From: a virus
Taxonomy: Duplodnaviria; Heunggongvirae; Uroviricota; Caudoviricetes
Reading direction: 5' to 3' (one strand)
IMG/VR virus record: IMGVR_UViG_2529293060_000014
Length of the DNA stretch: 41,046 bases
A program made the position numbers and the translations under genes. Below, one piece after another: positions 7,645 to 37,155 of the stretch (within the stretch, counting starts at the first letter, position 1; every line of letters begins with the position of its first letter). The notes under the pieces are model-generated. The model was not told the origin of the DNA. It worked only from the letters and a program-made list of their open reading frames with translations, and ran no database searches.

Positions 7645-8817
7645 TTACGCGCTGACCTGGCTGGCGAAATTCACCAGGTACTGATCGGTGATGCGCTGGC
7701 GCAGCATCAGATTTTCAAGTGGCGGCATTGGCGTGTAGTCATAGTCGATGGTGAGTTTTCCGGCTTTCAGCGTGTCTTTGTCGTTCACCGACTCATCCAG
7801 CCAGCAATCACCACCAATGAGATACCCCTGACTGACCAGGCTGCGCATTTTGGCGCGGATACCTTCGATAATGTCGCGGGCCAGCGACGGGTTAAGCGGT
7901 TTATCCACCGCCCACATGTGTGCTTCTGCCATCGTGTCCATCAGCACCTGCGCCGTGCGGGTGTAGTTTTCGAAGGCAAAGAGCGGGTCATCACTCAGGC
8001 AGCGGGAACCCCAGAAGCGGAAACCGTCTTTACGCACAAGCGTGGTGACGTCGTTCTGGTTCAGCAGACCTGCATCGGTTGCCGGGTCCTGCAGATCCCA
8101 GAACACATCAGCAGAAATTCCGGTGACACCGTTCACGCCCACGTTGGACAGGCTTTTGTGCCATCCAGTCTGCTCATCAATTTTGGCGCGCAGACCGAGC
8201 GCACGAGCGGTGGCATATGCCGTTGCTTCGGCATTCAGCACCGTGTCCCAGCCAGTAAAGTCAGGCCAGATCAGCATCCCTTCGCGCTGGCTGAAGTTTT
8301 CGCGGTAAGTGATCGCCTCCTGCACTGTCTTGCAGCCATACGCTGACAGGTAAGCAAACCCACGCAGGCTTTGCGCCACGCTCAGCAACTCAGTAGCTAC
8401 CGCCTTGGTGTCGTGGCCTGGCACGCCGAGAATGCGCGGTTTAACGCCGAGCTGTGACTGGGCAGATAACAGGGCTTTCATACCTGTTTTTTTACCTTCA
8501 GCAGTCACTGCGCCGATGATATTGGTCGTGGTTTCTTCTTCCGTTTCACCCTGCGGCACACGCACAACAACGGTCACGGGTTTTGCCTGGTCAGCGATGG
8601 CATCCAGCGAGCGGGCCAGTGTGCCGGACTCACCCGCTTTACCGCTGGCAGTCAGCACATCAGTGATCAGCACGGGTTTATTAAGAGGAAACATTTTTGC
8701 ATCGGCATCATCGCCCGTGCAGACCATACCCACGATGGCGGTGCTCACCGTGGTAATAGATCGGGTGCCTTCGTTGACTTCAACAACGCGCACCCCGTGG
8801 TGGTAATCCTGAGCCAT
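7645..8817 (-). CDS. FI: contractile tail sheath protein
   Basis: 390 aa, first gene of the F operon; P2 FI is about the same size. Confidence 0.9.
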
Positions 8818-8893
8818 AGTGGCGAACCTCCTGATTGGATTAGGCTTCGCCCTATGTTGAAGTGATTGTGCCTGACAAACAGCTAAGCGCAGT

Positions 8894-8911
8894 TGTACCG
8901 TTATTCATACA
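8894..8911 (-). promoter_or_regulatory. candidate Ogr-type late-promoter activator site (TGT-N12-ACA) for the FI operon
   Basis: TGTACCGTTATTCATACA centred about 86 bp upstream of the FI start codon; same spacing as the site upstream of O. Confidence 0.4.
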
Positions 8912-8959
8912 AAATGACGGTATTTGTCTGCTTGCAGGGATAATCAACATAATGCTGAT

Positions 8960-9532
8960 TCAGGGGGATTCATTGCTCTTATTTGCCGGAAATTTTCTAT
9001 AAATTGTGGAAACACCTACATCAAAAATCAGTGCAATACGCTGTCTTGATTCTCCGGCCTCGAGTAAACGTCCAATCTGTGCCCACTGTTCGGTGGTCAA
9101 CTTAGGACGGCGTCCACCTACTCTGCCTTTGGCGCGAGCTGCAGCAAGCCCCGCCCTGGTACGTTCAACTATCAGTTCGCGCTCCATTTCAGCCAGGGCA
9201 CCCATGACATGAAAAAAGAAACGGCCCATTGGGGTACTGGTATCAATACTGTCAGTCAGGCTTCGGAAATTCACGCCACGCTGGCGCAGCTCTTCTATCA
9301 GCGTAACGAGATGCCGCATACTGCGCCCCAACCTGTCCAGCTTCCAGACAACCAGAGTGTCACCTGCCGATAATGTCCTGAGCAGTTTTTTCAGTCCCGG
9401 TCTGTCGGACTTAGTGCCACTGATTTTGTCCTCAAAAATCCGCTCACATCCCGCGCAGTTCAGCGCACTACGTTGCAAATCGGTGTTCTGGTCATTTGTT
9501 GACACGCGTACATAGCCAATAAGCATGATCAA
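8960..9532 (-). CDS. site-specific DNA invertase, serine recombinase of Hin/Gin/Cin/Pin family
   Basis: 190 aa; N-terminal YVRVSTNDQ catalytic-serine motif, resolvase core and C-terminal HTH (GVSTIYRKF). Confidence 0.9.
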   Translation of the reverse strand: MIMLIGYVRVSTNDQNTDLQRSALNCAGCERIFEDKISGTKSDRPGLKKLLRTLSAGDTLVVWKLDRLGRSMRHLVTLIEELRQRGVNFRSLTDSIDTSTPMGRFFFHVMGALAEMERELIVERTRAGLAAARAKGRVGGRRPKLTTEQWAQIGRLLEAGESRQRIALIFDVGVSTIYRKFPANKSNESP

Positions 9533-9581
9533 TCCCCTGAATAAAAACCGGGGATGATGCCAGTTAGCCGTTATCTCTGCA

Positions 9582-9607
9582 TTTTCATAAACGTTGGTTT
9601 GGGAGAA
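9582..9607. repeat. candidate invertase crossover site (gix/hix-like), invertase-proximal
   Basis: TTTTCATAAACGTTGGTTTGGGAGAA, imperfect 26-bp dyad; right half resembles the GGTTTTGGATAA half-site of gix/hix as recalled; shares an 11-of-13 core with the site inside H. Confidence 0.45.
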
Positions 9608-9937
9608 GCCAGATATGTCATTCAGCGAGGAGCTAATGCCAATGGTGCATGGATACGCTGGTCAGATGGTGCAATAGAAGTATTTGGAACCGGTGGATCT
9701 AATGATAATGGACTGGCTAAAGTTGTTTACCCAATTGCACTGCCTAAACTTTCACGTTTTATCAGTATCGCGGAAAGAATAAGAACGGATTACGAGAGCA
9801 CACCTAATAATGTTCACGTTTCAATGATCGTGGATGATCAGGTAACAAATACCGGCTTTTATGCCCGCTGCCAGATGTACGACGGCAGACCATCATCAAA
9901 TGCTTTTTCCTGGAGGGTTTATTGTGCGCCTGTTTAA
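9590..9937 (+). CDS. alternative (currently silent) tail-fibre C-terminal cassette
   Basis: Open frame from the crossover core (VGLGEARYVIQRGANANG...) with no credible start of its own; would be fused to the constant part of H after inversion. Confidence 0.5.
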   Translation, partial: NVGLGEARYVIQRGANANGAWIRWSDGAIEVFGTGGSNDNGLAKVVYPIALPKLSRFISIAERIRTDYESTPNNVHVSMIVDDQVTNTGFYARCQMYDGRPSSNAFSWRVYCAPV

Positions 9938-10121
9938 TCCAGTTACTTTGACTGAAGTAATCCCCGGTCTTCATGACGTGACCGGGGCTATTGAATTACC
10001 GGAGGACAACTGGTTTTTTACTATGACAGAAATTCCTCAGGGCATGGAGCTAACAATTAATGAGAAAGGCGAACCAATACTAATTGAGGTTAATCAGTCT
10101 CAGGGAATACAGGCCAAATAA
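9924..10121 (+). CDS. small ORF of the silent cassette (possible alternative fibre chaperone)
   Basis: GTG start with GGAGGG SD; 65 aa; 3' end overlaps the 3' end of tfa convergently. Confidence 0.35.
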   Translation: MRLFNPVTLTEVIPGLHDVTGAIELPEDNWFFTMTEIPQGMELTINEKGEPILIEVNQSQGIQAK

Positions 10122-10695
10122 TATCAGGCGCGGTGCTGGTATCTGTTGCCGTCACCGCGTCAATGTAATCCAGCACAGCGTTAAGCCGGGTTGTTTCTGC
10201 CTGCGTCAGTTTCCGCCCGGCCTGTAATTTCAGCTGAATCAGACTGATGGAAGCCATAGCAGCATCAATCAGAGACTGGCGCTGTACTTCTGCTGCATCT
10301 ACTGCGGCGCTATGCTGTGCCTCGGTATCTGTTACCCATTTCTCACCATCCCATTTATCGTATGGCGTTAATGGGGCAAAAGTGGTCGTATTTTCAGGGT
10401 AATCCCCCGGCACAGTAATTTCTTTTGATTCCCCCGTTTCGATGCCATAGACAATTTCACCGCGATGGTCTGGCACATATTCCCATGAGTTAAAATCTGC
10501 AGAACGGCAGATTGCATAACCAGCTTTGTATGCGCCTGGAGCATCTAAACAGGAACATGCCGGAATGCCGACACCAACGGCAAGATATTCAGTCGATATG
10601 GAAATATATTCCCGTGTTTCACCATCATAATTATAGACAGTAATATTCCCCGCCTTCGTGGCAATAAACTCGCTATTTAATACAGTGCTATCCAT
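10090..10695 (-). CDS. tail fibre assembly protein (Tfa / gpG family)
   Basis: 201 aa, directly downstream of H; C-terminal region typical of Tfa/U chaperones. Confidence 0.85.
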   Translation of the reverse strand: MDSTVLNSEFIATKAGNITVYNYDGETREYISISTEYLAVGVGIPACSCLDAPGAYKAGYAICRSADFNSWEYVPDHRGEIVYGIETGESKEITVPGDYPENTTTFAPLTPYDKWDGEKWVTDTEAQHSAAVDAAEVQRQSLIDAAMASISLIQLKLQAGRKLTQAETTRLNAVLDYIDAVTATDTSTAPDIIWPVFPETD

Positions 10696-12209
10696 TATGC
10701 AGCCCTCACAATGTAGTTAAATGCGATGTTGCGTGGACGGACACCGAAATAAGAAGTAACACCATTCATTGTCAAATTTCCAGAGCCAAAAGCGGTAAAA
10801 CCAGAACCAGCATTAACTGCCGAATCCGCGTTTCTGACAAAGTTTTTGGGAGGTGAACCGGAAACACCAGCCGAAATATCATCAGCATTACCGCCATTGC
10901 CGTGGTGGTTAGTTATCTTTGTTTCCGCCTGCGCCGTCAATAAACCTCGTCCAGAGTCAACCCCGCGCCCGTCATCCCAGCCGCGAATAAACTCACCACG
11001 TAAATCAGGCAATTTATTTGTCGGATAAGCCTTTGCCAGTTCCGGGTATTCTTCAGCAGAAAAAGCCGCGCCGTTGCATTTCAGCCAGCCTGTTGGCGGA
11101 GTGGCGGAAGGCCATGGAACAGGGACACCAACGGGTAATGCAGAGCCTTCTCCCAAACCAAGGTATGCGAGAAGACCAGCTACATCCTTTCCACTCAAAT
11201 TGGTAAGCGTATTGTCCAGCGGTTGTTTACCTGCCAGCGCATTAAGCATTGTCGTGGCAAAGTTCGGATCATTCCCCAGTGCCGCCGCCAGTTCGTTCAG
11301 TGTATCCAGTGCCGCAGGTGCAGAACCCACCATTGCTGCAATCGCTGATTTCACAAAAGCTGTAGTGGCAATCTGTGTATTGTTGACCGACTGTGCCGCA
11401 GTAGGTGCTGTTGGCGTTCCGGTGAGTGCCGGACTCGACAGCGGTGCTTTTAGTGCCAGCGCATTGTTAATGGTGGTACTGAATTTCGGGTCATTGTTAA
11501 TGGCTGCGGCAATTTCTTTCAGTGTGTCCAGCGTGGCTGGCGCACCGTTAATCAGAGCAGTAATAGCGGCCTGAACAAACTCAGTGGTCGCAATCCGCGT
11601 GGTGTTATTTCCTGCTGCAGGCGTCGGCGCTTTTGGTTCTCCGGTAAATGTCGGATTATGTTTCTGCGCATACTGGGTATGAGGATCTTGTGCGGCAATG
11701 TGGTTTCTCATCTGGTCATCCACATACAGCTTTAATTCCAGGACTTCATCATCCACGTATTTACGGGTTGCCAGCACTACAGCAGGGTCGATTTTCAGGG
11801 TGATATTGTCCGTACTGCTGGTAATCAGCACCATGCGCACGGTCTGGGTGCGCCCGCTGCCTTCAGCCAGTTGCGGCTTATAGCTTTCCGGGCAGTTGCC
11901 CACGGCAATCAATGCCCCGGACTCATCAAACAGGCCCACTTCACGTATCCACCAACCGCCCTCGTTTTCAGGGATCACCTGTTCAGCAATAATCTGGCTG
12001 CTGTTCTGCGGGTCGATATAAAGCATATTCAGCGCAGCCCGGCGTTTCTCATTTACCAGTGCCGTCTGCTTTGCGTCCGGAGTTGGCAATACTCCGCCGC
12101 CATCGCCCACCGCCATATGGGTAATTTTTAGCGGCACACCGAGCGCGGCGGCGCTGGCAAGTTTCGCCGCGCCAATATCCGTCAGCAGGGTATAAAATTT
12201 TGTGCTCAT
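10695..12209 (-). CDS. H: tail fibre protein
   Basis: 504 aa; two tandem ~45-aa repeats (ATTEFVQAAITALINGAPATLDTL... / ATTAFVKSAIAAMVGSAPAALDTL...); position after I and J. Confidence 0.9.
   Translation of the reverse strand: MSTKFYTLLTDIGAAKLASAAALGVPLKITHMAVGDGGGVLPTPDAKQTALVNEKRRAALNMLYIDPQNSSQIIAEQVIPENEGGWWIREVGLFDESGALIAVGNCPESYKPQLAEGSGRTQTVRMVLITSSTDNITLKIDPAVVLATRKYVDDEVLELKLYVDDQMRNHIAAQDPHTQYAQKHNPTFTGEPKAPTPAAGNNTTRIATTEFVQAAITALINGAPATLDTLKEIAAAINNDPKFSTTINNALALKAPLSSPALTGTPTAPTAAQSVNNTQIATTAFVKSAIAAMVGSAPAALDTLNELAAALGNDPNFATTMLNALAGKQPLDNTLTNLSGKDVAGLLAYLGLGEGSALPVGVPVPWPSATPPTGWLKCNGAAFSAEEYPELAKAYPTNKLPDLRGEFIRGWDDGRGVDSGRGLLTAQAETKITNHHGNGGNADDISAGVSGSPPKNFVRNADSAVNAGSGFTAFGSGNLTMNGVTSYFGVRPRNIAFNYIVRAA
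10828..10853. repeat. candidate invertase crossover site inside the tail fibre gene
   Basis: GCGTTTCTGACAAAGTTTTTGGGAGG; the minus-strand codons ...CCC-AAA-AAC-TTT-G align with TTC-ATA-AAC-GTT-G of the site at 9582-9607. Confidence 0.45.
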
Positions 12210-12811
12210 GGATTCACTCTCATTGTGTCAATAACATGGACCGCCCCGCCTTCATGCGCGGTGCCACCGGAAATAATCGTTTCGTTGATATACGGATAGA
12301 TCGTGATTTCTTCGCCAAGATAGCTGGCAACCCCCATCCAATGTGGGCCGCTGGTCTGCAGATTGATGGACATGCCGATCATGTGACGGCTACATGGTTT
12401 GGCATCACTTATCAGCCTCTCAAGTTCCAGATAGGTATCTTCAGTGATGCCCTGGTCCTGCACGCCGATATCCAGGCGAAACGTTCCCGGTGCTTCTCCG
12501 GTCTGCCACCATTCAATAATGCGGATCAGGAAGCCGAACGGCTCCACCACCCGCCGCACAGCACTGGTGGTTCCTTTATGCTGATGTATATAAAAAGCAT
12601 CCTTCACCACCTGGCGTTTGACGCTTTCTGTCCAGCTCTCGTCCCAGCGATCCACAGAGAACGCCCAGGCGAGATAAGGCAGGAAACTGACTGGACAGGT
12701 TGCCGGATTCCACAAGTCACGCAGCGGCACCTGCAAATCAGAAATCCCGCTGCACGCTTGCGCCAGTCGGCGCTCCAGTGGCGTTGAACCCGGTGGCAGC
12801 AGACTATTCAT
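12206..12811 (-). CDS. I: baseplate assembly protein I
   Basis: 201 aa, P2 gene order. Confidence 0.85.
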   Translation of the reverse strand: MNSLLPPGSTPLERRLAQACSGISDLQVPLRDLWNPATCPVSFLPYLAWAFSVDRWDESWTESVKRQVVKDAFYIHQHKGTTSAVRRVVEPFGFLIRIIEWWQTGEAPGTFRLDIGVQDQGITEDTYLELERLISDAKPCSRHMIGMSINLQTSGPHWMGVASYLGEEITIYPYINETIISGGTAHEGGAVHVIDTMRVNP

Positions 12812-13712
12812 CAGTTCCCCCGTTGGTTACGCTCCACTGCGTACATGATGCCGCCTGCGTTTTGTTCAGGACCACATCCGCCAGCGGCGAAGCCAGTTCC
12901 ACACGCTGCACACCTTCAACATGCAACGCGGCAAAGATGGCGCTACGGCGAATATCCCGACCAAGCCGCGTCTGACTGGCGATGTACTTCTGCAGGCTGG
13001 CTTTTGCCGCTGCCATTACCGGCTCTGCTTCTGGTCCCGGATAGAGAAAAATGGTGGCTTCCACGCGGTACGGGATGATTTCTGCACTGCGAACCGTCAG
13101 ACGGTCAGCCACCGGGCGGACGTTCTCACTGTTCAGAGCTTTTTCCACCACGTCCAGCAGGTCTTTTTCTGCAGTTCCATCGCCTTCGCGGCTAAGGACA
13201 GTCAGCACCACCTCTGCAGGTGCCGGGCTGGTTGCACTGGCATCCGCCACCCGACCGTCGGCGCTTCGGGCATGAAATTCATAAGCTGCAGTTGGCCCCG
13301 CAACTGAAAGCCCTTCAAAGGCTGCAGGCACACGCAGGCGTAACGCTTCATCGCTTTCCATCACAGCTGCAACGGGCGGCACAGCGTCATTATCAGCAGG
13401 CGTCACCGTCAGGCGTTTCACGTTGTAGTTGGCAGCGAGCTGGTCAAGATCGCTGCCCATCGCGTAAGCCACCATCACAGCCTGCGCGGCTTCGTTAATG
13501 CGCTGGCGCAGAAGCAACTCACGGTAAGCGTTCTCCTGCAGCAATTTGGTGACGGGTTCAGATTCCAGTTCCAGCGTGCGGATCACTGCTTCCTGCTCAT
13601 CTTTCGGATGAAGCGCCACAAATTCTGCCTTGCGTTCGGCAAGCAGCGTCTCAAAGTCCGGCACATCCACAATCTGCGGCGCAGGCAACTGCGAAAGGTC
13701 AATCACTGCCAT
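12804..13712 (-). CDS. J: baseplate assembly protein J
   Basis: Track ORF extends to 13751; start set at MAVIDLSQLPAP by analogy with the P2 gpJ N-terminus. Confidence 0.85.
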   Translation of the reverse strand: MAVIDLSQLPAPQIVDVPDFETLLAERKAEFVALHPKDEQEAVIRTLELESEPVTKLLQENAYRELLLRQRINEAAQAVMVAYAMGSDLDQLAANYNVKRLTVTPADNDAVPPVAAVMESDEALRLRVPAAFEGLSVAGPTAAYEFHARSADGRVADASATSPAPAEVVLTVLSREGDGTAEKDLLDVVEKALNSENVRPVADRLTVRSAEIIPYRVEATIFLYPGPEAEPVMAAAKASLQKYIASQTRLGRDIRRSAIFAALHVEGVQRVELASPLADVVLNKTQAASCTQWSVTNGGTDE

Positions 13713-14058
13713 TCTCTGCTCCTGTTGATACGGAAAGGGAAACAGGCACACCGTTATTACGCCGCCCGGTCAGCTCCACCACCATTGAACCGTCAAAATT
13801 GCTGTTGATGGTGATGGAATCCAGCGTCAGCCGTGGCTCCCAGCGACTCAGCGCCACATACACTGCCGACATGACCTGCAGGCGTAATGCCGGATTTTGT
13901 GGCTGGTCTATCAGTGTCGACAGCAGGGAACCATATTCACGACGGGCAATGCGGCTACCCTGCGGTGTCAGTAGAATGTCCCGCACCGACTGACGCAGAT
14001 GGTCAATATCAGTAATGGCTTTACCGCTGGTATTGTTCATCCCGATATAAAGCGTCAT
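13699..14058 (-). CDS. W: baseplate wedge protein W (gp25-like)
   Basis: 119 aa, P2 gene order. Confidence 0.85.
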   Translation of the reverse strand: MTLYIGMNNTSGKAITDIDHLRQSVRDILLTPQGSRIARREYGSLLSTLIDQPQNPALRLQVMSAVYVALSRWEPRLTLDSITINSNFDGSMVVELTGRRNNGVPVSLSVSTGAENGSD

Positions 14059-23098: not shown

Positions 23099-24076
23099 CT
23101 AAATCAGAAAGTGACTCATATTAGATCTATAAATATCAGAATTTATCTTAATTTTGCTTATTGACTCAGATATTACATTCATCAGTGAATCATAGTCTTG
23201 ACTAGTGCGCAAGGGATTAGCCAATTCATTATCAACAAGTTGTTGAGTTCCTTCGCAATTAAGTCCCAGTGGATTATCAGCCTTATGCGGTACAACAGCA
23301 AAAATAGGTCTTGCCGCTTTAATAGCAAAATCCGCCTGCGTCATTGTCCCACTATTTTTTGCTGCTTCGATTAGTATCGAAACTGCTGATAAACCTACCT
23401 GGATTCTGTTGCGTTGCACAAATGACTGCTTGAATGCAGGCCTCCCTACAGGATACTCAGAAATCCAAGCCCCACCGTTAGATAAAATTTCATTTGCTAA
23501 TCTAGCATTTTGTTTAGGCTTAGCGCTCTCTAAACCATGAGCTAATACAGCAATTGTTTTAGCACCTGCCTTAAGAGCTGCCTTGTGTGCATTTGTATCA
23601 GTACCAATAGCTAGGCCGCTTACAATCACCACACCTCTTTCACAGATTTTCTTGGTAATTCTCTTCGTAATTTCTTCCCCTGCCATAGAAACTTCACGAG
23701 AACCAACAATTGCAACTCCTGGCATCTCACTAAGAATATTTACGTCCCCCTTCAAATATAACATTGCTGGGGGATTTGGCGTAATTGCTAAACAAATAGG
23801 GTATTTAGCATCTCCAAAAGGAATTGGAACAATCCCCAATGACAAATGCTTGCTCAAATAGTCTTCAGCATTATGCAATGACGCTATAGAAAAGGCGGAT
23901 TTTAAAATCCCGGCTGAATTAACACACTCAACCAATTCATATTCATCGGAAATAATATGGAATGGAATATCGTTAAATAATTTAAGCAACCCTTGTTCTG
24001 ATGCAAGTCTATCAACCTGTACCGATAGACCTAACAATATTTTGAATTGGGAAGGGTGCATTATTTCACTCCTCAT
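23099..24076 (-). CDS. DprA/Smf-like Rossmann-fold protein (ShosA-like putative antitoxin)
   Basis: 325 aa; central VAIVGSREVS...GVVIVSGLAIGTDTNAHKAALKAGAKTIAVLAHGLE...YP...RNRI matches the DprA nucleotide-binding fold; AT-rich; overlaps the upstream PRTase gene by 11 nt. Confidence 0.7.
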   Translation of the reverse strand: MRSEIMHPSQFKILLGLSVQVDRLASEQGLLKLFNDIPFHIISDEYELVECVNSAGILKSAFSIASLHNAEDYLSKHLSLGIVPIPFGDAKYPICLAITPNPPAMLYLKGDVNILSEMPGVAIVGSREVSMAGEEITKRITKKICERGVVIVSGLAIGTDTNAHKAALKAGAKTIAVLAHGLESAKPKQNARLANEILSNGGAWISEYPVGRPAFKQSFVQRNRIQVGLSAVSILIEAAKNSGTMTQADFAIKAARPIFAVVPHKADNPLGLNCEGTQQLVDNELANPLRTSQDYDSLMNVISESISKIKINSDIYRSNMSHFLI

Positions 24077-24635
24077 AATTAGCTGTTTCTAGTAACGCCA
24101 GTGGCAATATTGTCTTTGCGCCTGCATATCTTAACAGATAATAGCACGCCGTCATACTCCCCCCAGTTGTAGTAACATCATCAATAAGGAGAATAACCTT
24201 ATCAGCCACATTGGATGTAACTCCGATTGTTGACATATGATGTTCGACAGAACGATCTCCGCCCCCCTTATGAGCACTCACTACTGTTGTTTTTCTCTGT
24301 AATGATTGGTTATATACAGCATTAGGAAATTTTTTCGCAATATCTTGCGCTATTTTTATTAAAGCTTGAGATACTTTTCCCTCAGCATGAGAAGGAACAA
24401 TTGTTATCTCAAAGGGCACGTCGGTAAAAGCAACCCTACCAATCACATAGCTTTGGAGGCTAGAAGTTAAAAGTTGGGTAAAAATATTAACAGCCTTTGC
24501 ATACCCGGAATTTGAAGCGTCCTTCAAATCCATCATTGCCTTTGAAAGTCTATCCCCGGAACGAGGATTTCGCTCTCCTCGATATCGCCAAGGATGATAT
24601 GTACCGCAAGAGTAAATTTTGATTGGCCCCATCAT
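24066..24635 (-). CDS. phosphoribosyltransferase-domain protein (ShosT-like putative toxin/effector)
   Basis: 189 aa; C-terminal type-I PRTase motif VILLIDDVTTTGGSMTA; AT-rich codon usage unlike the phage core. Confidence 0.7.
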   Translation of the reverse strand: MMGPIKIYSCGTYHPWRYRGERNPRSGDRLSKAMMDLKDASNSGYAKAVNIFTQLLTSSLQSYVIGRVAFTDVPFEITIVPSHAEGKVSQALIKIAQDIAKKFPNAVYNQSLQRKTTVVSAHKGGGDRSVEHHMSTIGVTSNVADKVILLIDDVTTTGGSMTACYYLLRYAGAKTILPLALLETANYEE

Positions 24636-32391: not shown

Positions 32392-33408
32392 ATGACTGTC
32401 AGAAAACAGCCAAACGGCAAATGGTTGTGTGAGTGCTATCCCAATGGACGCAATGGCAAGCGCGTGCGTAAGCAATTTGCTACGAAAGGAGAAGCCATTG
32501 CTTTTGAAAGCTTCACAATGGAAGAAGTGAATAAAAAACCGTGGCTAGGTGAAAAGGATGATCGGCGACGCCTATCAGAATTAATTGAGCTTTGGTATTC
32601 CCTGTATGGCCAGACACTCGCAGACCCCAAGCGCCTCATGGCGAAACTTAGAATTATCTGTAATGGTCTAGGCGACCCCATCGCCTCAGAACTGACAGCC
32701 GGTGACTTTACAAAATACCGCGAAGCACGGTTAAAAGGCGACGTTCGTAACGAAGACGGCACACTAATGTCGCCAGTAAAACCACGCACGGTGAATCTTG
32801 AGCAACGTAACCTATCATCGGTTTTCGGCACATTGAAAAAACTAGGCCACTGGTCAGCACCAAATCCTCTCGCCGGGCTGCCAACATTTAAAATCGCTGA
32901 GGGGGAACTGGCGTTCCTGACCTCGGAAGAAATTAAACGTCTGCTAGATGCCTGCGCTGATTCTCAAAACCCCAGTCTGCTTTTGATTGCAAAAATATGC
33001 CTGGCCACCGGCGCACGCTGGAGTGAAGCCGAAAACCTGCAGGGCCATCAGTTATCTAAATACCGCATCACTTATACCAAGACGAAGGGCAAGAAAAACC
33101 GCACCGTGCCGATATCTCAAGATCTGTATGACGAACTCCCCAAGAACAGAGGGAAGCTATTCACCCCGTGCAGAAAAGCCTTTGAACGGGCAGTAAAGCG
33201 AGCTGGCATCGAGCTGCCAGAGGGCCAATGCACTCACGTGCTACGTCATACATTCGCCAGTCATTTTATGATGAATGGCGGAAACATACTGGTCCTACGC
33301 GATATTCTGGGCCATGCCGATATAAAAATGACGATGATTTACGCCCACTTTTCGCCGGATCATCTTGAAGATGCAGTTACTAAAAACCCTTTATGCAACT
33401 TAAGATAG
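32392..33408 (+). CDS. int: tyrosine integrase (P2/186 type)
   Basis: 338 aa; C-terminal HVLRHTFASHFMMNGGNILVLRDILGHADIKMTMIYAHF (R-H-R-Y catalytic box); directly downstream of cI. Confidence 0.9.
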   Translation: MTVRKQPNGKWLCECYPNGRNGKRVRKQFATKGEAIAFESFTMEEVNKKPWLGEKDDRRRLSELIELWYSLYGQTLADPKRLMAKLRIICNGLGDPIASELTAGDFTKYREARLKGDVRNEDGTLMSPVKPRTVNLEQRNLSSVFGTLKKLGHWSAPNPLAGLPTFKIAEGELAFLTSEEIKRLLDACADSQNPSLLLIAKICLATGARWSEAENLQGHQLSKYRITYTKTKGKKNRTVPISQDLYDELPKNRGKLFTPCRKAFERAVKRAGIELPEGQCTHVLRHTFASHFMMNGGNILVLRDILGHADIKMTMIYAHFSPDHLEDAVTKNPLCNLR

Positions 33409-33786: not shown

Positions 33787-35523
33787 CTACTCAAGAAGAT
33801 ATTCTAACTCATCTTTTATCGGGATAACTTGCTCATAAAGTCGGTGATATGACTTCCCAATTGCGCCTCTGAATTGTATTAACTTTGGTGGCTTGTTACC
33901 TATATTAATAATATGGTCTTGAGCTATACCTGGGTAGGGATCAATAAATACAATTTCAGATATACCTAACTGATAAGCTTTTTTCGCACACAGCTCACAG
34001 GGACTGGCAGTTGTATATAACCTCCCCCCCTGAACGCCAATGCCACCATATTTTGCAAGTTGTAAAAATGCGTTTTCCTCAGCATGTAATGCACGTGTAT
34101 GAACTTGATTACCTTTTTTATCTTTATCAAGATCATTATGTATATCTTTAAAACAATAAGATAAGTTCCTGCCTCTATAAATATCACCAGTTTTATCTAT
34201 CGCCCTAAAATTTAATAGTTTCTCATTAGCTTTAATTCTGAAAGAACTATTATTTCTCTCATAATAACTGTACACTTTTTCATCAAAGTCGTTCATTAGG
34301 CCATCTAGCGATCTCATAGAGCAAGGAATCTGACCGTTGGCGACATCATTCCAACCCACTGATTTTATTGAATTTTCACCATCAGTTACTACAGCTCCCA
34401 CCTGTCTAGATATACAACCAGAGTTTAATTTTACCGTATACGCAACTTGCATAACCCTTTCCATTGCAGTAGGTGTTATCAGACCAGGATGCTTCATCAG
34501 TGCGATGTACCACGCTAATTGTGCTTTTAAAATATTGTCATTATCAAATTCATTTTTTGGGTTAAAAATGTGTATATCTGATAGTTCAATGCATTTAGTT
34601 ACATTTGGATTAGTGAGATGTTTGTAAGAGTTATCACCTTTACCTGACTCTACAGAATCTATTTCCTCTATCTGCTTTTCAGAAAACTTATGTAGTTTCC
34701 GCAAATAGTTTGTTCGATGTTCATCTGGGGCATTTATTGACATTAAATGAAATGCAGAATATCTATCCTTAAAAAATTTTGCTTCATATGGATTTCTAAT
34801 AGCATCTATGACAATTAATGCGTTATCTCTTTTGCTTTTTCTTATTAATTTAATAACCCTATTAATAGTTTCCGGCAAATGAAAAACAGATTTAGGTATA
34901 AACTCTTTATCTTCAAAATCGACTTCAATACGCCCACGGCGTCTAATTGACTTACCTGCTAACTGATAGACTGAAACATATAAATTTGAGTTTATCGCAT
35001 TTAGTTCAGCTTTGAATTCCTTAGTAAATTTTCTAACTAACCTCAAAATTGATATAAATTTATTAATCGTTTTTTCATTAAGCTTCAATTCACTATTATG
35101 ATCAAGCAAATTCTCAATTACATTTTTAAATCTTGTTAAAATGAGATTATCTGAAAATACACCAAAAGTTAATACATTATCTAAATGCTCTTTACTGATA
35201 GATTTATTAGATGATAGAATAAACTCAGAAGCTTCTTCAACTGTTAACATCAAAAGATACGCTGAGATTAGGTCACTCACCTTAATTGAGTAAAAATTTT
35301 CCCAGTGATTTTCTGCGAATTTTTTAACTATATTATAACGATGGACATCCAATCCCTTGTAAAAACCCTGTAATTTACTTACATCAGGGAAGACTGTTTT
35401 TTCGTTTTCAAGAATATTAGCTGTTGTTGTGCAACCAGAACCAGTTCGACCTGTCAAACCGACTAAAATAAACTGCCCATTTTCAAGGAAAAGCTCACTA
35501 ACGAATTTTTTTTCTTTCATCAC
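33787..35523 (-). CDS. P-loop NTPase/kinase + cytidine (dCMP/dCTP) deaminase fusion protein, AvcD / anti-phage dCTP-deaminase-like
   Basis: 578 aa; N-terminal Walker-A-like GLTGRTGSGCTTT (Cys in the usual Lys position); C-terminal zinc-deaminase signature HAEENA...SPCELCAKKA; about 30% GC, unlike the phage core. Confidence 0.6.
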   Translation of the reverse strand: MMKEKKFVSELFLENGQFILVGLTGRTGSGCTTTANILENEKTVFPDVSKLQGFYKGLDVHRYNIVKKFAENHWENFYSIKVSDLISAYLLMLTVEEASEFILSSNKSISKEHLDNVLTFGVFSDNLILTRFKNVIENLLDHNSELKLNEKTINKFISILRLVRKFTKEFKAELNAINSNLYVSVYQLAGKSIRRRGRIEVDFEDKEFIPKSVFHLPETINRVIKLIRKSKRDNALIVIDAIRNPYEAKFFKDRYSAFHLMSINAPDEHRTNYLRKLHKFSEKQIEEIDSVESGKGDNSYKHLTNPNVTKCIELSDIHIFNPKNEFDNDNILKAQLAWYIALMKHPGLITPTAMERVMQVAYTVKLNSGCISRQVGAVVTDGENSIKSVGWNDVANGQIPCSMRSLDGLMNDFDEKVYSYYERNNSSFRIKANEKLLNFRAIDKTGDIYRGRNLSYCFKDIHNDLDKDKKGNQVHTRALHAEENAFLQLAKYGGIGVQGGRLYTTASPCELCAKKAYQLGISEIVFIDPYPGIAQDHIINIGNKPPKLIQFRGAIGKSYHRLYEQVIPIKDELEYLLE

Positions 35524-35828: not shown

Positions 35829-35925
35829 ACGTCTATTGTCGTCCAGTGAGAATTGCTGAGAACTACGAGTTATGGCACCCTGAATGGGACCCACTAAGAA
35901 GGGTCCAAAAACCGAGGGTCCCAAA

Positions 35926-37155
35926 ATGGCAAAAATCGCTAAGAAGCTCACTGACACTGAAATCAAAAGCACCAAGCCAGCCGATAAAGAAATCAACTTG
36001 TTTGACGGTGATGGTCTGATTCTACGAATCGCTCCTTTGGCGAAAGGAGGCAAGAAAAATTGGTATTTCAGGTATGCAGTACCAGTGAGCAAGAAAAGAA
36101 CCAAAATGAGCCTTGGGACATATCCTCACCTTACCCTTGCAAGAGCCAGAGCCTTACGTGATGAATATCTCTCCTTTCTGGCAAATGGTGTTGATCCCCA
36201 AATCCATAACAACGATAAGGCGAAGGCATTAAAGAGTGCTACTGAGCACACTCTCCAAGCCGTAGCGCGGAAATGGTTAGATGAGAAGGTAAAGACATCA
36301 GGTATCTCACAAGACCATGCAGCAGACATCTGGCGCAGCTTAGAGAGAAATGTCTTTCCCGGTCTGGGTAATGTCCCTATCAATGAGATCCGACCTAAGC
36401 TCTTAAAACAACACCTTGATCCTATTGAGCAACGAGGCGTATTGGAAACTCTACGCCGTATCATTTCACGTCTGAATGAAATCTTCCGGTGGGCAGCTAC
36501 TGAAGAACTTATTGAGTTCAACCCGGCTGACAACCTTGGTCAAAGATTCAGTAAACCAAAAAAGCAAAATATGCCTGCCCTTCCCCCAAGCGAATTGCCA
36601 AGGTTTATGGAATCTTTGACGAATGCGTCAATCCGGTTGGAAACACGTATGCTAATTGAATGGCAATTGTTGACATGGGTTCGTCCGGGTGAAGCCGTTC
36701 GCGCAAGGTGGTCTGATATTGATACAACCAACAGCATTTGGAACATTCCTGCTGATTTCATGAAAATGAAAAAGCTTCACAAAGTTCCTTTGAGTAAAGA
36801 AGCTTTGCGCATCCTTGAATTAATGAAATCAATAAGTGGGCATAGAGAATGGGTTTTCCCCAGCATAAAAGCGCCTCTTAATCATATGCATGAACAAACA
36901 GCCAACGCAGCTATCATCCGAATGGGGTTCGGAGGCGAGCTTGTAGCTCACGGTATGCGTTCTATTGCACGAACAGCGGCAGAGGAGTCTGGTAAATTCA
37001 GAGCTGAAGTTCTTGAGGCAGCGCTTGCCCACTCGAAAAAAGATGAAATTATCGCAGCATACAATCGTGCAGAATATCTGATAGAGCGACAGAGTTTGAT
37101 GCAATGGTGGAGTGATTACGTTCAAGCTCAAAGATCAAATGCTCTGGTAGCCTAA
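35926..37155 (+). CDS. intA: P4/CP4-57-type tyrosine integrase
   Basis: Track ORF 35884-37155; start set at MAKIAKKLTDTEIKS by similarity to E. coli IntA (MARKTKPLTDTEIKAAKP...) as recalled; conserved HGMRSIARTAAEE and AYNRAEYL boxes. Confidence 0.85.
   Translation: MAKIAKKLTDTEIKSTKPADKEINLFDGDGLILRIAPLAKGGKKNWYFRYAVPVSKKRTKMSLGTYPHLTLARARALRDEYLSFLANGVDPQIHNNDKAKALKSATEHTLQAVARKWLDEKVKTSGISQDHAADIWRSLERNVFPGLGNVPINEIRPKLLKQHLDPIEQRGVLETLRRIISRLNEIFRWAATEELIEFNPADNLGQRFSKPKKQNMPALPPSELPRFMESLTNASIRLETRMLIEWQLLTWVRPGEAVRARWSDIDTTNSIWNIPADFMKMKKLHKVPLSKEALRILELMKSISGHREWVFPSIKAPLNHMHEQTANAAIIRMGFGGELVAHGMRSIARTAAEESGKFRAEVLEAALAHSKKDEIIAAYNRAEYLIERQSLMQWWSDYVQAQRSNALVA

Follow-up and report, generated by a model that had tools for sequence, protein, structure and literature searches.

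In the G segment of phage Mu (invertase Gin, with S/U and S'/U') and the C segment of P1 (Cin), the crossover splits a fibre gene into a constant and a variable part, the invertase gene lies adjacent, and the 26-bp sites share the architecture AAACC-NN-GGTTT. The P segment of the cryptic prophage e14 in Escherichia coli K-12 (stfP/tfaP, tfaE/stfE', pinE) has convergent cassettes with overlapping 3' ends, the invertase gene being located just outside the segment. The Fin invertases of the Salmonella phages Fels-2 and SopE-phi belong to related systems, and both of these phages integrate at ssrA. For P2-like E. coli prophages, such as those of the EPEC strain E2348/69, inversion has been shown experimentally by sequencing, including switching within single-colony cultures (PMC4272514), and an invertase is known in the G-to-FI hotspot of P2 (bioRxiv 10.1101/2024.10.15.618418).

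The locus described here (positions 8,960 to 12,209) is part of a Caudoviricetes sequence of 41,046 nucleotides, which was analysed as a whole and is referred to as the window. Very probably, it represents a two-state, invertase-driven host-range switch in a P2-type prophage located beside ssrA in E. coli. This reading is carried by the crossover sites, an intact invertase, an in-frame fusion and the repeated natural occurrence of the exact inversion in near-identical elements of other strains, all of which were demonstrated. According to the RefSeq annotation of 98%-identical loci, the surrounding genes form a P2-type (Peduoviridae) tail module in the order V-W-J-I-H-G / FI-FII-E-E'-T, and the Pfam families of the neighbouring genes (Tail_P2_I, Phage_sheath_1, Phage_tube, Phage_P2_GpE and PhageMin_Tail) are likewise of P2 type. 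The arrangement is that of the Mu G, P1 C and e14 P segments: the crossover lies within the fibre gene, and two convergent cassettes, each consisting of an alternative C-terminus and its own accessory gene, are present, one of which is joined to the constant part.

Two pix/gix-type crossover sites of 26 bp in inverted orientation delimit the segment, each built of two imperfect half-sites of 12 bp that flank a 2-bp core. The invertase-proximal site at 9582..9607 (TTTTCATAAACG-TT-GGTTTGGGAGAA, core 9594-9595), where an earlier note on this DNA had already placed a junction at about 9590, is identical in all 26 bp to the invertase-proximal pix site of e14 in K-12. The distal site at 11148..11173 (TTCTCCCAAACC-AA-GGTATGCGAGAA) is located inside gene H with its core, 11160-11161, within codon Leu350, and is conserved in loci with other cassette pairs. 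The sites are identical at 21 of 26 positions, with matching cores (TT and AA), and form the best inverted repeat of the region (9582-9608 with 11147-11173; 27 nt, 81%). The identical half-site plus core, TTCTCCCAAACCAA, is present exactly twice in the 41 kb; on the gix/hix-type 26-bp consensus both sites score 17 of 17, the next best 26-mer of the window reaching 13. A search of the window for a third copy of the half-site, allowing up to three mismatches, returned none, and a multi-state shufflon as in EPEC was rejected because no third site was found.

Next to the proximal site, a DNA invertase of the Pin/Gin family is encoded on the minus strand (8960..9526; 188 aa). The ATG at 9526 is its likely start, the list of open reading frames also containing a TTG at 9532. 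The Pfam domains Resolvase (2.7e-53) and HTH_7 (1.5e-15), found at 8960-9532 on the minus strand, provide the N-terminal catalytic domain and the C-terminal helix-turn-helix of a small serine recombinase, in agreement with the Hin/Gin/Cin-family invertase previously assigned to this place beside the segment. Residues 3-186 give a strong, full-length match to Mu Gin (PDB 3UJ3; E 4e-92), and the protein is 86% identical to PinE of e14. Aligned with Gin, the protein keeps the catalytic Ser9; aligned with Gin and gamma-delta resolvase, it has counterparts of all of Y6, R8, S10, Q14, Q19, D36, S39, R45, D67, R68 and R71. A mutation of the catalytic site, which the earlier note had named as an observation that would speak against the switch, is therefore absent. 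Invertases that are activated by Fis and an enhancer are marked by particular residues, in Hin K47, R48 and K51 as well as Q151, R154 and L155 (PMC3798978). Read from the alignment, the invertase of the window carries K, K and R for the three basic residues (RPGLKKLLR) as well as Q, R and L (EQWAQIGRLL); the Lys-Lys-x-x-Arg patch lies in helix B, and Gln/Arg/Leu belong to helix 1 of the DNA-binding domain.

A putative Fis-dependent recombinational enhancer was assigned, by position and homology, to 9440..9506 (minus strand) in the 5' end of the invertase gene. Its distance from the proximal crossover site would be about 90-150 bp, the arrangement described for hin being one of about 100 bp (PMC3798978); in this family, the enhancer normally resides near the 5' end of the invertase gene, at about that distance from one of the sites. 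The stretch at about 9440-9506 aligns with the same part of e14 pinE and of Mu gin, in the latter the part said to hold the enhancer, but because it also encodes the catalytic motif, this conservation is not independent evidence. The candidate Fis 15-mers are 49 bp apart compared to the 47 bp stated for hin (PMC3798978), and the enhancer is therefore kept as a putative feature. A promoter scan for the invertase gene yielded nothing above chance and no convincing match.

All of these parts might also be present in a fossil switch, in which the segment is locked in the strain of the window by the exchange N20S, by a lack of invertase expression or by a non-functional enhancer. Position 20 of the invertase is indeed a serine, in contrast to the asparagine of PinE, of Gin and of the enzyme in the flipping strains 82.0311 and 82.0312, a good promoter match is missing, and locked variants do seem to exist, as the cores are mismatched in a related locus (L026), which may be locked. 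However, the cores in the window match (TT/AA), both sites and all catalytic residues of the invertase are intact, and the exact Ser20 allele is very common, the identical protein being listed in 1429 blocks of the public collection. Furthermore, this allele occurs together with one and the same 1984-bp segment in both orientations (locus L022 versus L023, 99.7% identity). We thus consider a locked segment distinctly improbable.

The invertible segment extends over 9595..11160 and measures 1566 bp from core to core. Three apparently clonal E. coli pairs that carry near-identical elements (82.0311/82.0312, 61/64 and DG342-2/DG341-1) are identical over 6.6-8.6 kb save for an exact inversion with its end points inside the sites; in the sibling strains 82.0311 and 82.0312, the 1538 bp that separate the repeat arms are exactly reverse-complemented, and this is the sole difference. 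The natural breakpoints are at 9594-9608 and 11147-11161, inside the arms, and are not placeable more finely because the arms share 15 identical bases. Similarly, the window flipped in silico aligns unbroken with E. coli EC43 and 82.0312, at 100% coverage and 98.0% identity, values equal to those of the top matches obtained with the unflipped window. Of the complete E. coli genomes matching at a coverage of at least 80%, 41 have the orientation of the window and 20 are flipped. Near-identical elements (98%) reside in E. coli W and other RefSeq genomes, the RefSeq annotation of the two states giving fibres of 504 aa and 463 aa, and the homologous segment of other genera appears, in their draft assemblies, as a stand-alone contig that ends in the crossover cores.

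General (RecA) recombination at short inverted repeats, with the invertase uninvolved, would offer another origin of these inversions between genomes, and the 15 identical bases of the arms, which limit the resolution of the breakpoints, leave room for it. Fifteen bases, however, are by general knowledge far below the normal need of RecA, the repeats are canonical 26-bp invertase sites of which one is identical to a pix site, an intact Pin-type invertase adjoins them, and three independent lineages show the identical event; we therefore attach hardly any probability to this origin. The anatomy drawn in the earlier note, in which about 1.25 kb, from about 9590 to about 10844, would invert and fuse ...SPPKN to VGLGEARYV, finds the 8-bp AAAC(G/T)TTG at both places and an implied fusion that is in frame, but it is as good as dismissed, as the area around 10844 scores at most 10 of 17 on the site consensus, the half-site has no third copy, the motif occurs six times in the window with about 2.5 expected by chance, the natural inversions, three out of three, already refute it by ending at 11147-11161, and a flip constructed at 11160 aligns with other genomes without a break.

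The motif at about 10844 is a chance 8-bp resemblance that was mistaken for the second site: when the junctions are compared with the gix/hix-type consensus, 9582-9607 and 11148-11173 fit and the area around 10844 does not. The right boundary had consequently been drawn 316 bp too far in, and the end coordinate given for the feature, 10853, shortens it by about 320 bp. With the right site at 11148-11173, the segment measures 1566 bp and not about 1.25 kb. What holds of that first interpretation is its core, an invertase of the Hin/Gin/Cin/Pin family that switches fibre C-termini along with their accessory genes in a P2-type tail module, whereas it was wrong on the distal site, the fusion codon, the length of the segment and the size of the expressed variable part.

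The fibre gene H occupies 10695-12209 on the minus strand. Its constant N-terminal part of 350 aa (11160..12209, minus strand), with the Pfam domain Phage_tail_fib at residues 1-150, is located outside the invertible segment and is the same in both orientations. At the fusion codon, Leu350 (...LLAYL/GLGE...), it is joined to the variable C-terminus of cassette A (10695..11159, minus strand), the currently expressed state, which comprises the 154 aa from GLGEGSALPVG to IVRAA and the stop codon rather than the 47 aa after ...SPPKN taken for it before. A Pfam Collar domain is found at residues 361-408 of H, and the tip, which resembles the collar regions of T4 gp37 and gp12, is 56% identical to StfE of e14, the first 66 aa and the last stretch being identical. 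On the same strand, as had been recognized, follows a TfaE-like tail-fibre assembly protein of 201 aa (10090..10695, minus strand; Pfam Caudo_TAP, PF02413, 5e-30), 88% identical to TfaE of e14.

The silent cassette B lies on the plus strand and begins with a fibre tip of 113 aa (9596..9937; GLGEARYV...CAPV and stop codon) with a gp53-like C-terminal domain, as indicated by phrog_2557 (2e-15) and, weakly, by Pfam Gp53-like_C (0.0023). Inversion in silico creates an in-frame fibre of 463 aa (...LLAYLGLGEARYV...CAPV and stop codon), and in the flipped strain 82.0312 the annotated fibre, likewise of 463 aa, ends in this tip. In the position of the assembly protein, the tip is followed by a conserved small open reading frame of 65 codons (9924..10121, plus strand) that starts with GTG and has a GGAGG 7 nt upstream. 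Both the alternative C-terminus (VGLGEARYV..., 9593-9937) and the 65-aa frame (from the GTG, 9924-10121) had been seen correctly on the plus strand, as had the unequal size of the cassettes, a 113-aa tip with 65 aa against a 154-aa tip with 201 aa.

The 65-aa protein, which is found in the usual position of the assembly protein without the usual C-terminal domain, is the sole mildly new item of the locus. It has 123 homologues across the Enterobacterales, almost all of 57-91 aa, and the start MRLFN is conserved in 18 of 18 aligned homologues. The protein is always encoded directly after a gp53-like tip, and in Candidatus Erwinia dacicola no gene other than its homologue occupies the Tfa position. 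No Pfam family was matched. The protein corresponds to positions 1-66 of the 145 positions of phrog_5400, which suggested that a 145-aa protein had recently been truncated; the idea was dropped, since the 123 homologues are with few exceptions short and the start is conserved. Tfa proteins (Caudo_TAP, PF02413) are composed of a variable N-terminal domain and a conserved C-terminal helical domain. The 65-aa protein is weakly related to the former (hhalign probability 61%), and at their length nearly all of its homologues are too short for the latter. Judged from its sequence, it is thus a protein in the Tfa position, yet not a standard Tfa. A single-sequence AlphaFold model was unusable (pLDDT 51). 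It might be speculated, tentatively and with the odds somewhat against it, that the protein represents an uncharacterised class of minimal fibre-assembly factor, a Tfa cut to its fibre-binding N-terminal domain that lacks the conserved helical domain for trimerisation and is dedicated to gp53-like tips. The folding of gp53-like tips would in that case be assisted in another way than the current two-domain Tfa model describes. The 65-aa partner of the gp53-like tip poses a small, testable question on fibre assembly.

For the switch itself, we propose that the 188-aa serine invertase binds the two inverted 26-bp sites, of which the proximal one is situated 56 bp upstream of its start codon and the distal one within H. 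It would cut both at the central TT/AA dinucleotide, and rotation and rejoining of the DNA would invert the 1566 bp. The H promoter and the first 350 codons would stay fixed and be joined by the flip to one of two ends, either the 154-aa collar-type tip followed by the TfaE-like assembly protein, as in the window, or the 113-aa gp53-like tip followed by the 65-aa protein. By analogy with the family, the reaction is expected to depend on Fis and the enhancer, to proceed by cleavage at the 2-bp core and to change the host range, as virions of the two states should bear different receptor-binding tips.

Beyond correct annotation, the significance of such a textbook host-range switch is small. Gene callers render the silent cassette as 'hypothetical proteins' and the length of the fibre varies with orientation, such segments split short-read assemblies and leave stand-alone contigs of about 1.2-1.7 kb, and host-range prediction for this prophage has to consider two receptor-binding tips, not one.

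Compared to the known systems, the likeness to e14 extends from the convergent cassettes, with their overlapping 3' ends, and the position of the invertase gene to the distal site, which shares the half-site and core TTCTCCCAAACC-AA with that of the window. In contrast, e14 is a lambdoid remnant, whereas the element described here has a complete P2-type tail module; its constant fibre part is P2 H-like (Phage_tail_fib), and a gp53-like tip with the 65-aa protein takes the place of StfP/TfaP. The sites follow the architecture of those of Mu and P1, with the core AA/TT as in pix, while that of gix is GA/TC. The segment has 1.57 kb compared to about 3 kb in Mu, and in contrast to Mu and P1 the cassettes are very unequal, one accessory gene encoding the 65-aa protein instead of a full-length Tfa. 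The closest counterparts are the P2-like E. coli prophages, which are of the phage type found here, alternate likewise between two states of the fibre C-terminus and have the invertase gene at the same place, flanked by tfa and the sheath gene. In EPEC, one prophage carries three repeats and switches among four states (PMC4272514), compared to two sites and two states in the window. Thus, the switch is an ordinary member of a system already documented in P2-like E. coli prophages, from which it differs in its particular cassette pair and in nothing of principle.

The tail genes of the window form a P2-type row on the minus strand in which J (12804-13751), I (12206-12811) and the tail-fibre gene H (10695-12209; 504 aa, with a Phage_tail_fib N-terminus and a Collar domain) are followed by tfa (10090-10695; 201 aa, Caudo_TAP), a recombinase gene (8960-9532; Resolvase and HTH_7 domains) and the sheath gene (7645-8817). 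Between tfa and the recombinase gene, the plus strand carries two ORFs without an upstream gene of their own, one reading ...NVGLGEARYV...CAPV* and ending at 9937, the other a 65-aa ORF (9924-10121) with a GTG start at 9924, seven bases after GGAGG. The sequence thus contains the pieces named in the earlier note. The 3' ends of tfa and the 65-aa ORF converge and overlap by 32 bp (10090-10121), and the last codons are therefore common to both cassettes, on opposite strands; a comparable overlap of 29 bp is found in the cassette pairs of e14, phage 500465-1 and CPF6.

The best inverted repeat in the region 8800-11200 pairs 9582-9608 with 11147-11173 (27 nt, 81%) and contains two 26-bp sites, a proximal one at 9582-9607 (TTTTCATAAACG|TT|GGTTTGGGAGAA) and a distal one at 11148-11173 (TTCTCCCAAACC|AA|GGTATGCGAGAA), which agree at 21 of 26 positions when aligned in inverted orientation. 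In the e14 prophage of E. coli K-12, the pix site nearest the invertase has exactly the sequence of the proximal site, and both window sites share the build of Mu gixL and gixR. The two sites have a complete half-site plus core, TTCTCCCAAACCAA, in common, and the 41-kb window contains no other exact copy of it; a search allowing up to three mismatches added a single match, with three mismatches, in the flanking island (36581). When 26-mers are scored against a gix/hix-type consensus, the two sites each reach 17 of 17 and the next best in the window 13. The left junction placed at about 9590 in the earlier note falls inside the proximal site, whereas the right one, at about 10844, has no site-like 26-mer scoring above 10 in its vicinity, and the strongest repeat pairs elsewhere; the AAAC(G/T)TTG core that the two junctions had been said to share occurs six times in the window, with about 2.5 copies expected. 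Core to core, the invertible segment spans 9595-11160 and measures 1566 bp rather than about 1.25 kb. The crossover lies inside codon Leu350 of H (...LLAYL|GLGE...), dividing the gene into a constant part of 350 aa (11160-12209, minus strand) and an expressed variable end of 154 aa (10695-11159, minus strand), which is followed by tfa (cassette A); the variable end had previously been taken as the 47 aa after SPPKN, a motif that falls within the divergent centre of this tip. Silent cassette B consists of a 113-aa fibre end (9596-9937, plus strand) and the 65-aa ORF, and flipping the segment in silico yields an uninterrupted fibre of 463 aa, ...LLAYLGLGEARYV...CAPV*.

Both orientations occur in nature. 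Complete E. coli genomes, among them N44, 82.0311 and DETEC-P881, match the unflipped region 8800-11400 over its full length at 98.0%. The flipped version finds equally good single-piece matches in EC43 and 82.0312, and it also matches E. coli W, where an IS3 element is inserted. At a coverage of at least 80%, the window-type orientation is found in 41 genomes and the flipped orientation in 20. A base-by-base comparison covered three pairs of isolates that are evidently clonal, 82.0311/82.0312, strains 61/64 and DG342-2/DG341-1, over 8601, 6720 and 6646 bp, respectively; all three pairs are identical save for an exact reverse complement of 1538, 1658 and 1583 bp between the repeat arms, with natural breakpoints corresponding to window positions 9594-9608 and 11147-11161. 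In drafts of Intestinirhabdus, Pantoea and Xenorhabdus, the homologous segment is a stand-alone contig of 1.25-1.68 kb bounded by terminal inverted repeats of 12-15 nt, which are the crossover cores, and many E. coli contigs with the 65-aa gene measure 1.55-1.64 kb. Since assemblers yield such segment-sized contigs when the sequenced culture holds both orientations, the stand-alone contigs are an assembly signature of mixed orientation. We are highly confident that the mechanism is an invertase-driven, two-state switch of the fibre end. The earlier observation is partly confirmed and its interpretation partly supported: the kind of system had been recognised correctly, while its distal boundary has to be moved to the repeat arm at 11147-11173.

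The invertase aligns to Mu Gin (PDB 3UJ3) over residues 3-186 (E 4e-92) and shares 86% identity with PinE of e14. A catalytic-site mutation, which the earlier note had named as evidence against the switch, was looked for, and alignment to gamma-delta resolvase revealed equivalents of the full set of serine-recombinase catalytic residues. The protein also retains the basic K-K-x-x-R patch of helix B and the Q/R/L residues in DNA-binding helix 1, which are conserved only in Fis/enhancer-dependent invertases (PMC3798978). A putative recombinational enhancer may lie in the 5' coding region, which can be aligned with the corresponding parts of gin and pinE and is separated from the proximal site by about 90-150 bp, the position of the enhancer in hin. 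Codon 20 (9467-9469) encodes Ser, whereas the invertase of the flipping strains 82.0311 and 82.0312, like PinE and Gin, has Asn. It is unlikely that the Ser20 enzyme is dead, because this exact protein is very common (listed in 1429 blocks of a public collection) and accompanies one 1984-bp segment that lies in opposite orientations in loci L022 and L023, at 99.7% identity. A further locus with the same allele, L026 (CP099129.1), has mismatched cores, TT versus GA, at positions 1024 and 2920, and no recognisable second tip was found there; this switch is probably locked and decaying. In the window, a hairpin with a T-run after it (9546-9565, minus strand) is located between the start codon of the invertase and the proximal site; its 3' arm overlaps the likely ribosome-binding site AGGGGA, and it could limit invertase expression.

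The tfa product of cassette A is 88% identical to TfaE, the e14 assembly protein, and the tip is 56% identical to the e14 tip StfE in a mosaic fashion: the two proteins agree throughout their first 66 residues and almost throughout the last 15 or so, and the central 75 or so (10743-10961, minus strand) are unrelated and presumably form the receptor-contacting part. Judged by these identities cassette A is e14-like, and its tip is similar to the collar regions of gp37 and gp12 of T4. The cassette B tip matches Gp53-like_C weakly and phrog_2557, and no solved structure of a relative was detectable by sequence. We recovered 123 homologues of the 65-aa ORF, down to about 60% identity, in E. coli, Enterobacter, Salmonella, Citrobacter, Hafnia, Xenorhabdus and Erwinia; no Pfam family matched. 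A truncated gene is ruled out by the lengths of these homologues (almost all 57-91 aa) and by the MRLFN start of all 18 that were aligned. The 65-aa protein behaves as the partner of the gp53-like tip, because this tip directly precedes the small gene in every locus recovered and because Candidatus Erwinia dacicola has the order H, tip, small gene, sheath, with neither an invertase nor a second cassette. Residues 23-59 show a weak link to the Tfa N-terminal domain (hhalign probability 61%, E 8e-5), and the protein is devoid of the Tfa C-terminal helical domain; a passage of PMC9608196 citing North et al. 2019 describes the former domain as binding the fibre and the conserved C-terminal helices as driving trimerisation.

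From its sequence the window is E. coli, with 99.5% identity between its flank and E. coli genomes; the prophage, bordered on its left by an ssrA with the E. coli tag peptide (698-1060), extends from about 1.1 to 33.4 kb with a terminal P2-type integrase (32392-33408). Beyond its right end follow a second integrase (35884-37155) and a gene pair with Response_reg_2 and HATPase_c domains (to 39834), which suggests a tandem of two mobile elements at ssrA. A ShosTA-type defence pair (23099-24635, minus strand; DprA-like ShosA, 2.6e-70; phosphoribosyltransferase-like ShosT, 2.7e-18) occupies a known P2 cargo hotspot beside the portal gene, and a dCTP-deaminase-type defence gene of 578 aa (33787-35523, minus strand; PADLOC dCTPase, 8e-145) lies just past the prophage integrase.

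The feature is a host-range switch of the type of Mu G, P1 C and e14 P, located in a P2-type phage, in the gap between G and FI. It is of an already known kind, since inversion in E. coli P2-like prophages has been shown by sequencing single-colony cultures, with e14 confirmed by PCR (PMC4272514), invertases have been noted at the P2 G-to-FI hotspot (bioRxiv 10.1101/2024.10.15.618418), and the same layout occurs in annotated phage records, among them Escherichia phage 500465-1 and Cartapus. The same invertase allele and constant part of H occur with at least six other cassette pairs, an instance of the modular exchange of receptor-binding modules already known from that hotspot (bioRxiv 10.1101/2024.10.15.618418).
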